From contig JBPOGI010000001.1 of NCBI GenBank assembly GCA_051251855.1, forward strand, positions 1,760,001 through 1,824,000: DNA of 64,000 nt, in the 5' to 3' direction. The stretch is from Roseibacillus sp. (lineage in GTDB: Bacteria > Verrucomicrobiota > Verrucomicrobiia > Verrucomicrobiales > Akkermansiaceae). The position numbers were made by a program, and so were the translations under genes. The notes beneath the pieces are model-generated. The model was not told where the DNA came from, did not search any database, and saw nothing but the letters and a program-made list of their open reading frames with translations. Positions 42,317-53,301 of this stretch are shown here, one piece after another (the stretch's first letter is position 1; each line of letters starts with the position of its first letter).

Positions 42317-42711
42317 AGGAGTTCTTTTAGCATATCGCCACTTACCCCCAAACTCCAATTTCACGCCCCTTTTCTCATCACTCACTTCCAAGTCCTTGTC
42401 ACGATGCGCCAAAAAAACCGTCCAAAGAATGCTCCCAATAAACAAATGGGAACCACCAGCCCACTTGCACCCAAAAGAATCGAATCCACGCTCGCCCCGT
42501 TGTCCGAAAGAAGCTTCAACAGGTCGGCACGGCCCTTCTGAACCATCGTCAGCCCAAGGCTAATCAGTCCAGTCGCCAAAAGACACCAATCCATTCGCCA
42601 ACTCATTTGCAAGTGCAGCTTATCAATTTTTTTTAACAAAAGGGAGCCAAAATTTTCGCTCCGACAAAATCGGCGTTGGACCCCATCGCTACTTGGTTCG
42701 ATAGTCTCCCT

Positions 42712-43257
42712 GTGATACCCACCCTTCCTGACCCTCAAAGTCCTCTCCGTGAAATCCTTGCGAGCTACCCCTCAGCCCGTAGAGCCCTCTTCGCGGCCTA
42801 CCATATTGGAGGCTGCCAATCCTGTGCTTTTTCTGAAGAAGACACTCTCGCCGAGGTTTGTCGACAAAATGATATCGACGAGCTCAAAGCACGGGAAACC
42901 ATCGCTCAAAGCCATCAAGAAGAGCAAGAACTCCTAATTTCTCCTCACCAACTCCAATCGGAACTCTCTTCTGAGCACCCTCCCAAGCTCATTGACACCC
43001 GCACGCGCGAAGAACACGAAGCGGTAAGAATAGAACCTTCCATCCTGCTGACTGAAAACACCTTATCATCCTTATCTACTGAAAACACGGAAGAGAGAAT
43101 CATCTTTTACGACCATCTTGGCTCCTCCGTTTTCGACCATGTCTCTTGGTTCCGCGGCCACGGCTTTAAGAAATGCTTCGCTCTTGAAGGCGGCATAGAT
43201 GCCTACGCCAAAAATGCCGACCCCTCCCTCGCCCGTTATCGCCTCGAGATGGACTAA
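42712..43257 (+). CDS. Rhodanese-domain protein with N-terminal GGCxxC domain
   Basis: ALFAAYHIGGCQSC; LIDTRTREEHE; LEGGIDAY; start uncertain (GTG 42712). Confidence 0.8.
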   Translation: MIPTLPDPQSPLREILASYPSARRALFAAYHIGGCQSCAFSEEDTLAEVCRQNDIDELKARETIAQSHQEEQELLISPHQLQSELSSEHPPKLIDTRTREEHEAVRIEPSILLTENTLSSLSTENTEERIIFYDHLGSSVFDHVSWFRGHGFKKCFALEGGIDAYAKNADPSLARYRLEMD

Positions 43258-49329: not shown

Positions 49330-50438
49330 GCGCGGTTAATGGCATCAATCATCATTCTCAACTTCCCAAAACTGCCCTTTCGATTACGAAAAACCAACCG
49401 CGGCAACTCACTCAACTCAGGCTCATCATCTTCGGCCTCCAACGGACCACTCATTTCCATCGGCCCTGACGTCACCAGAGTCGCAAAATCCTCCTCTAAC
49501 TGAGCAACAAACTCCGCACTCAACTCCTTCTTTAACCGAATGACAATCTTATCCCCCACATAACGGTAGCTGTGATAATTGCGGTAGAACCCTGTAATCT
49601 CGGCCACTGCCTCCTCGACATCATCCGTCACTTTGAATAGCGCAAAGTCATGATCCGAAATTAACTTCAACCGGTGCAAATGCTCCTCAATGAATTGATT
49701 CCAAAACTTCCAATAAGTGCCCCCCGGCGCATCTAACAACACAATTGGATAGACCGTCGCCTTCCCCGTCTGAATCAATGTTAGCGCCTCGAAAACCTCA
49801 TCCATCGTCCCAAAACCACCCGGACAACCCACCGCTGCGTCCACCTCCTTTACAAAGGCCAGCTTGCGCGTGAAAAAGTAATCATAATCAATGAGCTTCG
49901 CATCGCCTTTGATAAACTCATTGGCCGAAGCCTCGAACGGCAACGTGATATTAAGTCCAAAGGAATCATCACGCCCCGCCCCCTCATTACCCGCCGCCAT
50001 GATACCTGGCCCCGCCCCTGTCACCGTCATATAACCTTCTTCGCACATCCGCCGCGCGAACTTAACCGTCGTCTGATACTCAGGTTCCTCCGGCTTCGTG
50101 CGCGCTGAACCATAAATCGCGATCTTCCGGCAATTGCGATAGGGATGAAAGACCTCCTCTGTGACCTGCATCTCCTTAAGAGCCCGATTCATCAGCTTAA
50201 AGTCGGCCTGTTCCGTGCGGCTGCGCGCCACCCTCACCGCCGTCGTCATCAATTCAGCCAAAAGACAAACTCGACTTTCGTCTTCCTCCACTTCTCGCGC
50301 CAGCCCCATAATACGGTCATCTGTCTCACTATCGCCCGTTGTTCCTACAAAAGAACACGAAAACGAACGCGTCATTCCCGCCGTAAAGTCACGTTCCACC
50401 GGAATCTTAGTCGGTTGCACCTGCTGAGCCATATCCAA
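49326..50438 (-). CDS. LOG family protein (TIGR00730-like)
   Basis: YGSART, TGAGPGIM, YFFTRK, PGGFGTMDE. Confidence 0.88.
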   Translation of the reverse strand: MDMAQQVQPTKIPVERDFTAGMTRSFSCSFVGTTGDSETDDRIMGLAREVEEDESRVCLLAELMTTAVRVARSRTEQADFKLMNRALKEMQVTEEVFHPYRNCRKIAIYGSARTKPEEPEYQTTVKFARRMCEEGYMTVTGAGPGIMAAGNEGAGRDDSFGLNITLPFEASANEFIKGDAKLIDYDYFFTRKLAFVKEVDAAVGCPGGFGTMDEVFEALTLIQTGKATVYPIVLLDAPGGTYWKFWNQFIEEHLHRLKLISDHDFALFKVTDDVEEAVAEITGFYRNYHSYRYVGDKIVIRLKKELSAEFVAQLEEDFATLVTSGPMEMSGPLEAEDDEPELSELPRLVFRNRKGSFGKLRMMIDAINRA

Positions 50439-50533
50439 GAGCCTGAATCACCCACCAAATTCAGCAAGAACCTTGCGCCCGCTTTGCCGTCATCAGGAGT
50501 GGATTTTTTTCAACCCTCAGGCATGGTTTCTTC

Positions 50534-51856
50534 ATGAATCTGGCCGCTCTCCCTTCCGTGGAAAAACTTTCGCAACAACTTGCCAAAAACTCCCAACTGC
50601 CCAAGTCCCTCGTCGTTGGCTTCGTCAAGCGCCACCTCACACCCTACCGCGAACGCCTCCAGTCGGGAGAAGAACTCACCCGCGAGGACATCACCTCCGG
50701 CATCACCTCTGCCCTCGAAACCTTCGAAAGCTCCCGCCTCCAGCCCGTCCTCAACGGCACCGGCATCCTCATCCACACCAATCTCGGGCGCTCTCCCCTC
50801 GGTCACCGTGCCGCTCAAGCTGTCTACGATGTTGCCACCAACTACTGCAACCTCGAGATCGACCTTACCACCGGCAAGCGCGGCAAGCGCGGAGCCTTCC
50901 TCGAAGAAGCCCTCGCTATCCTTGTCGAAGCCGAAGCTGCCACCGTCGTCAACAACTGCGCCGCTTCCCTCGTCCTCACCCTCCGCGCCCTCATCGCCGA
51001 AGGCAAAACCGAAGTCATCGTCTCCCGAGGCGAACTCGTTGAAATCGGCGGTGGCTTCCGCATCCCCGACATCCTCGAAACCTCCGGCGCCAAGCTCGTC
51101 GAAGTCGGCGCCACCAACAAGACTCACCTCCACGATTACGAAAAGGCCATCACCGAGCGCACTGCCCTCATCCTCAAAGTCCATCGCTCTAACTTCTATC
51201 TCGGCGGTTTCACCGGAGAACCCGAACTCGAAGACCTCTTTCAACTCGCCAAGAATCACAACATCCCCCTTGTAGAAGACCTCGGCTCCGGCGCCCTCAT
51301 GCACACCGACCACCTCGCCCCAATCGAGCATGAGCCCCGCCCGCAAGAGCAACTCGGACGCGGAATCGAGCTCGTCCTTTTCTCCGGCGACAAGCTCCTC
51401 GGCGGCCCTCAAGCTGGCATCATCGCAGGTCGCGCCGACTTGGTCGAAAAAATCAAAAGCGAACCCTTCTACCGCGCCGTCCGCCCCGACAAACTCATTC
51501 TAACAGCCCTCCAAGAAGTGGTCGTTGACTACCTCACCATCAAAGACGACCCCACCCGCCTCGACCTCGTTCCCGTCCTCGAGATGCTCAACCAAACTCC
51601 TGAAGACCTGCAGGAAAAAGCCACCGCCCTTCAGGAGCGCATCGGGGGCGAATCCGAAGTCGTCCCCACCACCGGAGCAACCGGCGGCGGCACAATGCCC
51701 CAAGCTCACTTCCCCTCCATTGCAGTCAGAACAAAAGACAAGCCCAAGCTCCCTCATCTCTTCACCCGGGTCGAAGACGATCAACATCACACCGACCCCC
51801 GCACCCTCCGCGAACCATCCAAGAGTGAGGCAGTCTCGCCGAGGCAGCCGCAATAG
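50534..51856 (+). CDS. selA: L-seryl-tRNA(Sec) selenium transferase
   Basis: NGTGILIHTNLGR, VNNCAA, SRGELVEIGGGFRIPD, EDLGSG, FSGDKLLGGPQ (PLP Lys). Confidence 0.95.
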   Translation: MNLAALPSVEKLSQQLAKNSQLPKSLVVGFVKRHLTPYRERLQSGEELTREDITSGITSALETFESSRLQPVLNGTGILIHTNLGRSPLGHRAAQAVYDVATNYCNLEIDLTTGKRGKRGAFLEEALAILVEAEAATVVNNCAASLVLTLRALIAEGKTEVIVSRGELVEIGGGFRIPDILETSGAKLVEVGATNKTHLHDYEKAITERTALILKVHRSNFYLGGFTGEPELEDLFQLAKNHNIPLVEDLGSGALMHTDHLAPIEHEPRPQEQLGRGIELVLFSGDKLLGGPQAGIIAGRADLVEKIKSEPFYRAVRPDKLILTALQEVVVDYLTIKDDPTRLDLVPVLEMLNQTPEDLQEKATALQERIGGESEVVPTTGATGGGTMPQAHFPSIAVRTKDKPKLPHLFTRVEDDQHHTDPRTLREPSKSEAVSPRQPQ

Positions 51857-51909
51857 AGAACCTTCCCATGGAATAGACACCCCCTCCCATTCGTCCCATC
51901 CCCAACGAC

Positions 51910-52785
51910 ATGAAGTCTTTCCTTCCTCTCCTTTTCATCCCGCTCATGGCCTGCAGCTCCCAGAATCAAGAAACCCCTCCCGAGCTCGGCACCGTCCAAT
52001 GGCAAACCGACCACGACAAAGCCCTCGCCCTCTCTGCCAAATCAGGCAAACCCATCTTCCTCCTTTTCCAAGAAGTCCCCGGATGAGGCCCTTGCAAAGT
52101 CTTCGGGTCCGAAGTCCTCAGCCATCCCCTTCTCGTCGAGTCCATCGAAAGCGATTTCATCCCTCTCCTCATTCGCAACAACAAACCCGGCCCTGAGACC
52201 GAACTATTGGAGAAATACAACGAGCCCTCTTGGAACTTTCCAGTTGTCCGCTTCCTTAGTCCAAAAGGCCAAGACCTTCTCCTCCGCAAGGACCGTCAAT
52301 TCAAGGTCGACCAACTCCTTCCACGCATGACCGAGGCTCTCACAAAATCAAAGAGAACCTCCACCATCCTCCCCCTCGTCCAACCCGAAACCGTCCGCCC
52401 CAGACTCATTGCCCTTTCCCAACATTGTTTCTGGACCGGCGAACTCGCCATCGGAGGCATCGAAGGCGTCACCAGAACCGAAGCCGGCTGGCTCAAAGGC
52501 AAAGAAGTTACCCTCGTCTACTTCGATAGAGAAGCCATCACCCAAGAGCAAATCGTCAAACAAGCCCAAGCCGAATCCTGCGCTGACGAAGTCTTCTACG
52601 GAGCCAACCTCAAAGGCTACCGCCCCGCCAGAGACTCCGACCAAAAGCGCCAACTCCAAGGCACCAAATTCGCCAGAATCAAGAACCTCACTCCCTACCA
52701 AAAAACCAAACTCAACGCCTTCGCCCGCACCAACCCCGCCCGGGCCAAAACCTACCTTACCCCTCGGCAAAAAACTCAGCTATGA
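51910..52785 (+). CDS. Selenocysteine-containing thioredoxin-like / MsrA-like lipoprotein (291 aa, Sec59)
   Basis: MKSFLPLLFIPLMAC lipobox; ...FQEVPG-UGA(52084)-GPCKVFGSEVL... continuing in frame with ORF 52207..52785; SECIS-like hairpin; adjacent to selA; CFW MsrA-like motif. Confidence 0.88.
52084..52120 (+). promoter_or_regulatory. Bacterial SECIS-like element
   Basis: Upper stem CUUCG/CGAAG with GGUC loop starting 19 nt after the UGA; lower stem UGAGG/CCUCA. Confidence 0.75.
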
Positions 52786-52833
52786 GACTTCAGCTCATCT
52801 TCACGAACTCTCATTTACACCCCACTTCGCCTG

Positions 52834-53301
52834 CTATCCTATAAACAGCTTCGTAATCACGAGAACCACCGCACAAACCCCAAGCACCAAGGGACTTCGG
52901 ACCAGCCTCTTGGTAGGTTCTGCAATCAAAGAGAGAGCAAAGACCGATCCGACAGCCAGCAACGAACAAAAAACGGGAAAAAGAGAGAGCTCCTCAGGAT
53001 TCGATATCACCAGCGAGAAAAAACCCCCAATGCAAAAAACGATTCCACTCAAAAACACCATCACAAAAACCCAGCGCAATAACTTATCCGCCCAACCATC
53101 CGAATCACTCAATACCTCAGAGCCACTGCTCAACTCTAACTCTACGCCCTCACTCACAAAAACTCTCACCCCTCCCACCGTAAGAGGCCCCCAAAGTGAC
53201 GAGACCGACTCGTCACAGATATCGGCGGCATAGCCTTCGCTCCGGAGTCTTGAAGCGGCAATAGCAGCTTCGATATGGTCGCTGAATACAAGAGTCCTCA
53301 T
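52834..53301 (-). CDS. DUF2007-like membrane protein
   Basis: EAAIAASRLRSEG...GGVRVFV N-terminal domain followed by TM helices. Confidence 0.6.
   Translation of the reverse strand: MRTLVFSDHIEAAIAASRLRSEGYAADICDESVSSLWGPLTVGGVRVFVSEGVELELSSGSEVLSDSDGWADKLLRWVFVMVFLSGIVFCIGGFFSLVISNPEELSLFPVFCSLLAVGSVFALSLIAEPTKRLVRSPLVLGVCAVVLVITKLFIG

Follow-up and report, generated by a model that had tools for sequence, protein, structure and literature searches.

A UGA-interrupted gene beside selA in Roseibacillus predicted to encode a selenoprotein with thioredoxin and MsrA-like domains

Results

The locus and its surroundings

In the window (the whole stretch of Roseibacillus sp. DNA that was analyzed, 64,000 nucleotides), selA is followed on the same strand by a gene with an in-frame TGA. 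From an ATG at 51910 the frame is open as far as codon 59, a TGA at 52084-52086; beyond it the same frame runs on to a TGA stop at 52783-52785, for a total of 291 aa with U59. The ORF caller output for the locus consists of a 192-aa fragment only, 52207-52785. Both the longer frame and the restriction of the ORF track to its downstream part had been described in the original prediction, and both descriptions hold. The features at this end of the locus are as follows.

50534..51856, + strand: selA, selenocysteine synthase, the upstream neighbor (TIGR00474, 456.4 bits against a cut-off of 267.9)
51910..52785, + strand: full gene, an NF041383 member, encoding 291 aa when UGA is taken as Sec
51910..51954, + strand: putative signal peptide with lipobox-like LMAC (Cys15), N terminus MKSFLPLLFIPLMAC; export and lipidation predicted from sequence
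52084..52095, + strand: redox motif U59-G-P-C62, preceded by VPG, with TGA 52084-52086 as Sec (a Cys column in homologs, TGA in 36 related genomes)

From its N terminus we infer that the protein is exported and probably lipid-anchored at Cys15. Lipobox-like motifs (LVAC, LMAC or LVGC) are found in same-genus TGA homologs, but only 33 of 104 motif-bearing proteins carry a loose lipobox pattern. Among named records, the nearest matches come from Roseibacillus, at 71-80% identity. The database entry from Roseibacillus persicicus comprises the downstream fragment only, as a 218-aa hypothetical protein.

As had been claimed, selA ends 53 nt upstream of the gene. The two genes adjoin in 4 of the 6 other genomes of the genus. 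Outside the genus, none of the 33 genomes that contain both has them adjacent (many of these assemblies are fragmented); among 45 GTDB loci, 3 show the adjacency, all three from Roseibacillus. Adjacency to selA was seen only within the genus, and we therefore reject it as a trait of the family. Clustering of 75 loci likewise revealed no conserved neighborhood beyond selA within the genus. The arrangement may reflect cotranscription in this genome: a scan of 50300-53000 detected neither a promoter-like site nor a terminator on the + strand, which is compatible with a read-through transcript from selA, yet uninformative.

The TIGR00474 match of the window selA stops at position 408 of 455; copies from other genera reach about 454. 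The match ends equally early in four of the five other same-genus selA copies that reach the C-terminal region. Judging by these profile matches, the C-terminal part of selA has diverged in this genus. Elsewhere in the window, 42676-43257 encodes a small prismane-associated redox disulfide-like domain (CQSC) with a rhodanese domain fused after it. Elsewhere in the genome, nine tRNA genes lie within 1.5 kb (G000:C10:114076-115599), an array type often carried by mobile elements, and contig C1 holds two tRNA-Trp(CCA) genes.

Homologs, decoding machinery, and co-occurrence with selA

What residue do homologs have at the position of the UGA? In an alignment of 68 rows (A1, with the query counted as Cys at the Sec column), the column is Cys in 66 rows and Trp in none. 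Among the best 120 of 310 homolog matches, 102 have CxxC and 1 has CxxV; 2 gave spurious pattern matches and 15 gave no motif match, 13 of these being fragments that start past the motif and 2 being full length but lacking it. Homologs P0005 and P0008 are full length and without the VPGC motif. CxxC was also present in 117 of 148 distant representatives. Neither the best 120 of 310 homologs nor the 148 distant representatives included a CxxT; across the two sets, many proteins have C-x-T-C.

Searching the genome for selB, selC and selD found all three, in addition to selA. SelB scores 331 bits against a cut-off of 242, and selC is a gene for tRNA-Sec(UCA). The selD product (L009, G000:C7:93121-94050) is itself a selenoprotein, with a CAG-U motif and one in-frame TGA.

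We then compared gene form with machinery across 200 other genomes of the same taxonomic family, of which 47 have the gene, 37 in a TGA form and 10 in a Cys form. All 37 genomes with TGA inside the match have selA above the cut-off, versus 2 of the 10 Cys-form genomes; a selB match was present in 36 of the 37, and either selA or selB in only 2 of the 10. Because the genomes are kin, these counts show a pattern but do not amount to a statistical test. The TGA was confirmed at the VPG column, with flanking frames intact, in 36 of the 37 TGA-form genomes; the remaining one (G069) looks broken.

The hairpin downstream of the UGA

52099..52116, + strand: apical hairpin of the bacterial SECIS, with its GGUC loop at 52106-52109 on a core stem of 52101-52105/52110-52114

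The original prediction placed a CUUCG/CGAAG hairpin with a GGUC loop 19 nt after the UGA, and added a UGAGG/CCUCA helix. The hairpin is present, but the second helix is absent from both the MFE and the centroid structures of this sequence. Its core pairing, UGAG/CUCA, shows no compensatory change across homologs, and one pair is broken in 4 of 11 rows. The hairpin falls within the bacterial SECIS constraints as quoted in PMC13188914: a 4-nt GGUC loop, a 5-bp stem, a 19-nt distance and -10.4 kcal/mol for the 62 nt from the UGA. Compared with shuffled versions, the 71-nt region does not fold any better (z +0.80), and of the 649 TGA ends of long ORFs in this genome, 142 have a G-loop stem of at least 5 bp somewhere in that range. 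None of the 649 has the exact register of the window hairpin. Across the 11 same-register rows the apical helix is 94.8% paired and has two compensatory changes (a level reached by 37 of 500 shuffles), figures biased upward because these rows were chosen from 20 for sharing the register.

The comparison of TGA with Cys forms was more telling. A G-loop stem of at least 5 bp is found in 20 of 20 distinct TGA sequences versus 11 of 47 Cys sequences; for stems of at least 6 bp the counts are 17 of 20 versus 2 of 47. A stem of at least 5 bp was also present at all 17 further TGA loci. The register varies by lineage after the same codon, with the loop at +21, +22 or +28; the loci with +21 or +28 instead of +22 are L066, L068, L072-L075, L077, L080 and L085. 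The assignment as a SECIS element, weak from the window hairpin alone, is settled by this comparison.

Perhaps the TGA is instead a true stop, a pseudogene lesion, or a codon read as Trp or Cys? Such a reading would fit a hairpin that is weak when taken alone, as well as databases that annotate only the downstream fragment, as in the 218-aa entry from R. persicicus. Against these readings stand the same TGA, kept between intact frames in 36 related genomes, a column that is Cys in aligned homologs and never Trp, a TGA form that tracks selA, a hairpin specific to TGA, ordinary genes that terminate at TGA here (the 649 long ORFs) and the presence of tRNA-Sec(UCA). We regard this whole set of explanations as very improbable. 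Hence, the hidden selenoprotein made by UGA read-through that had been proposed is borne out by the Cys homologs, the machinery, the co-occurrence with selA and the comparative SECIS results, and we conclude with near certainty that UGA-59 is selenocysteine decoded via the ordinary SelB/SECIS system.

Family membership

With UGA read through, the protein scores 314.8 bits against NF041383 (VPGUxxT family thioredoxin-like (seleno)protein, type 2; cut-off 275), its residues 25-290 covering profile positions 1-286 of 287. A resemblance to the VPGUxxT family had been proposed; passing this cut-off makes the protein an actual member. The accompanying suggestion that UxxC departs from the family was mistaken. 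Since CxxC is usual in it (the 102 of 120 best matches and 117 of 148 distant representatives above), UxxC or CxxC is the family norm and the motif is no novelty. The family name literally gives U-x-x-T, in contrast to U-G-P-C here, and the named members P0013 and P0098 have C-x-x-C. The name thus mismatches the family's usual motif, so the lack of a literal UxxT cannot count against membership. VPGU, at residues 56-59, lies within the thioredoxin fold.

Type 1 of the family (NF041382) was also considered and was rejected, the score of 102.9 bits being far below the cut-off of 350 and confined to the N-terminal half. The likeness is to the thioredoxin domain (17-148), whereas the C-terminal part is unmatched. 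Among the 301 genomes searched, none held a type 1 protein above the cut-off.

A 2026 review lists the family in its selenoprotein table as "hypothetical protein OS_HP5," with the motif VPGU and one Sec (PMC13188914). The window protein shares with the family the whole-profile match, the VPGU motif and the Sec/Cys pairs, with no sequence difference of importance. The table entry gives one Sec and the VPGU motif only, and an MsrA-fold second domain and a two-Sec form, both described below, are not mentioned there. A literature search for "VPGU" and "NF041383" returned PMC13188914 as the sole relevant paper. OS_HP5 is absent from the main text of PMC1976440 and PMC2398784, whose supplements may describe the family, and neither VPG nor OS_HP5 appears in PMC12013277 outside its supplement. 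In the main texts of the papers that our searches returned, we found neither the MsrA-like domain nor the two-Sec form. We conclude that the recoded gene is a further member of a catalogued but unstudied selenoprotein family.

A thioredoxin domain followed by an MsrA-like domain

51973..52359, + strand: thioredoxin-fold domain, about residues 22-150, DsbD-gamma/DsbH-like (PF13899, 40.7 against 27 bits)
52396..52782, + strand: compact MsrA-fold domain of C. oremlandii type, with an equivalent of the helical domain, residues 163-291 (structure match and HHalign)
52426..52434, + strand: C173-F174-W175, equivalent to Sec/Cys16-Phe17-Trp18 of C. oremlandii MsrA (CoMsrA); the C173 codon is TGA with a SECIS in other members
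52504..52506, + strand: E199, equivalent in the HHalign residue map to the catalytic acid Glu55 of CoMsrA (Glu94 in E. coli numbering)

The AlphaFold model of the protein (pLDDT 94.3) has two domains. The structure matches of the thioredoxin domain (VIA) include 3f9u (Z 14.6), DsbH 2ju5 (Z 13.4) and DsbD 1vrs (Z 13.2). A complex prediction for the two domains of a Cys homolog gave no support and no verdict, and weighs neither way.

The second domain, which was absent from the first reading of this DNA, is the more interesting feature of the protein. Residues 163-291 folded alone give pLDDT 96.9; in a comparison with 48,161 solved chains, the six top matches are all MsrAs. The best of these, 4lwj, aligns over 127 of 130 residues (VIA Z 14.4, rmsd 2.0 Å); HMA domains score about Z 5.5, and an HMA/CopZ identity was rejected as far weaker than MsrA. 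HHalign against 30 CoMsrA-type Sec-MsrAs from related genomes returned probabilities of 99.4-99.7.

The active site of CoMsrA comprises GCFWG, Tyr47, Glu55, Gln89, Tyr90, His137 and Tyr140, with Tyr47, Glu55 and Tyr90 binding oxygen and Phe17, Trp18, His137 and Tyr140 forming the methyl pocket (PMC4333827). Its catalytic Cys-Phe-Trp and Glu have equivalents here: in 119 aligned sequences C173 is conserved in all 119, E199 in 118 and W175 in 115, and the helical-domain ATRxN-type motif is kept. Tyr47 and Tyr90 (Tyr82 and Tyr134) and His137 are absent. The Tyr47 loop and the Gln89/Tyr90 loop are both missing, the G193-E199 loop being 5 residues in 112 of 119 sequences; His137 is replaced by Asp244, and Tyr140 by Arg247 in this protein (Tyr in 64 of 119). 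A further cysteine, C224, is semiconserved (84 of 119). With two tyrosine loops deleted and His137 lost, canonical methionine-sulfoxide reduction is doubtful. The domain falls short of the MsrA profile cut-off (PF01625, 16 versus 23.7 bits), and TIGR00401 is not among the C-terminal-domain profile matches at E 0.1. We conclude that the second domain is MsrA-like in its catalytic core yet outside the MsrA family.

Its nearest known counterpart in our comparisons is the 1-Cys MsrA of C. oremlandii (Clostridium/Alkaliphilus; 4lwj, 4u66). The two share the fold including the helical-domain equivalent, the equivalents of Cys16, Phe17, Trp18 and Glu55, and, in some family members, Sec at the catalytic position; no MsrA-type resolving Cys was identified. 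In contrast to CoMsrA, the window domain is about 75 residues shorter, lacks the Tyr47 and Gln89/Tyr90 loops and has Asp for His137; the window protein is also fused to a thioredoxin domain, predicted to be exported, and in this genome carries Cys, not Sec, at the catalytic position.

Some members vary this plan. L064 is a fused form that has lost the cysteine of the CFW motif (C173), and P0166 and P0233 have an extra C-terminal domain. From its motifs, that domain resembles an alpha/beta hydrolase and comes with putative TPR-like or PDZ-like segments.

Two-selenium members and domain-separated forms

TGA at the C173 column was found at 57 metagenome loci, each with a better score against the family profile than against that of MsrA; the search pattern demanded TGA at this column, so no frequency of TGA forms can be taken from the count. 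All 43 loci that reach the thioredoxin motif have TGA there too, the other 14 being cut by a contig end before it. Of 50 distinct sequences, 47 have a stem of at least 6 bp after the second TGA; after Cys codons the count is 4 of 67. Selenocysteine at a position is commonly taken as the mark of a redox-active residue. Because Sec occupies the C173 column in other members, C173 is very probably catalytic in the window protein too. Cys/Cys, Sec/Cys and Sec/Sec labels placed on a tree made by a quick method (93 rows; rows lacking either motif or with short tails left out) require at least 6 changes, for which we claim no direction.

The two domains also occur apart. Among the 37 TGA-form relatives, thioredoxin-only UxxC proteins outnumber fused forms, 22 versus 14. 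These thioredoxin-only selenoproteins of about 155 aa, from 22 related genomes (L082-L086, L126-L142), are probably unannotated because they are too short for the C-terminal half of the NF041383 profile. Stand-alone mini-MsrA domains have signal peptides of their own (L051, L053, L054, L056, L144 and L145). In two genomes, G072 and G112, separate exported thioredoxin-only and MsrA-like genes reside together, which fits a partnership without proving it. Given that thioredoxin-only forms are the commoner, that L064 lacks C173 and that P0005 and P0008 lack VPGC, the domains are not obligatory partners.

Discussion

A possible redox relay

Overall, we think it fairly probable that the locus encodes a recoded, exported, probably lipid-anchored NF041383 protein whose thioredoxin and minimal 1-Cys MsrA-fold redox modules act in relay. 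For the relay itself we favor, by a little, a self-recycling path from C173 to Sec59 to C62 to DsbD. Computation supplies the recoding signals, the family membership, the two folds, the residue equivalences and the Sec/Cys exchange at both sites; beyond these we infer export, the flow of electrons between the domains, DsbD as the donor and the substrate. C173 would attack an oxidized cell-envelope substrate, with E199 as acid, leaving a sulfenic acid or a disulfide on C173. Sec59 would resolve the oxidized C173 through a mixed selenenyl-sulfide, from which C62 would release it, and the U59-C62 bond would be rereduced from the cytoplasm through DsbD, whose gene is present in the genome. Methionine sulfoxide is the default guess for the substrate, though the pocket has been remodeled.

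Such a relay would resemble, in one chain, Neisseria PilB or the C. oremlandii pair of glutaredoxin and Sec-MsrA, in which glutaredoxin reduces the 1-Cys CoMsrA (PMC4479559). In PilB, the N-terminal thioredoxin domain recycles the Msr domains in the periplasm with electrons from DsbD (PMC6210582). The likeness is that of an exported thioredoxin-fold reductant, fed by DsbD, fused to an Msr domain (PMC6210582). PilB, however, has a TlpA-type thioredoxin domain, a complete MsrA, an MsrB and no Sec, whereas the window protein has a DsbD-gamma/DsbH-like thioredoxin domain, a minimal MsrA and no MsrB. Several observations count against the relay: the sulfoxide pocket is incomplete, the fused thioredoxin domain of PilB reduces MsrA only intermolecularly (PMC6210582), thioredoxin does not reduce CoMsrA (PMC4479559), and the two domains are not obligatory partners.

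It also counts against the relay that the genome already encodes canonical MsrA and MsrB with signal-like N termini, plus a CoMsrA-type Sec-MsrA. The last is a second hidden selenoprotein (L088, G000:C6:461808-462398), with G-U-FWG and a strong SECIS whose loop lies at +22. Proteins of this type turned up in 51 of the 200 related genomes; apart from one partial match, every one has a single TGA.

If recoding is accepted, might the second domain do something else? It could be a redox or metal module built on C173 and possibly C224, passing electrons to an envelope partner or binding Cu or Hg as HMA domains do, while the thioredoxin domain serves other clients. The loss of the Tyr47 and Tyr90 loops and of His137 would then be natural, as would weak CopZ/HMA profile matches (E 0.005-0.05), the Z of about 5.5 to HMA domains, a C224 present in 84 of 119 sequences and the commonness of thioredoxin-only forms. 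But the CFW loop holds a single Cys and no CxxC, the catalytic Glu and Trp of MsrA and the ATRxN-type motif are kept, and the structure matches to MsrA stand far above those to HMA; we judge such a module unlikely, though worth keeping in view. A further alternative, a plain periplasmic methionine-S-sulfoxide reductase of canonical specificity, would have the thioredoxin domain or a partner supply the missing tyrosines. It draws on the retained active-site Cys, Phe, Trp and Glu, on an MsrA fold extending over 127 of 130 residues and on a use of Sec at the catalytic position that mirrors the Sec-MsrAs. It must nevertheless contend with the absence of two of three oxygen-binding residues and of His137, and with the canonical MsrA and MsrB with signal-like N termini that the genome already has. 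We consider it improbable.

Implications for the family

The recoding as such is unremarkable: a selenoprotein from a catalogued family that annotation has missed. The records of a close relative hold the downstream fragment only, and the TGA form occurs in 37 related genomes, so gene calls in this group of genomes need correcting. The main value lies in function: what is listed as hypothetical OS_HP5 is a thioredoxin domain joined to a trimmed MsrA, and both active sites can have Sec. The family suggests specific assays and provides a natural experiment on which MsrA residues sulfoxide chemistry requires.

Going further, it is conceivable, though we would not call it probable, that NF041383 represents an unrecognized class of exported, self-recycling reductase. 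Its minimal MsrA fold would have lost the methionine-sulfoxide pocket, would act on another, oxidized envelope substrate and would regain its electrons from its own thioredoxin domain, by way of a Sec-to-Cys relay in the window protein or, in two-UGA members, a Sec-to-Sec relay. If this is true, the Sec-to-Sec relay of the two-UGA members would be a tandem-selenium electron path within one chain.
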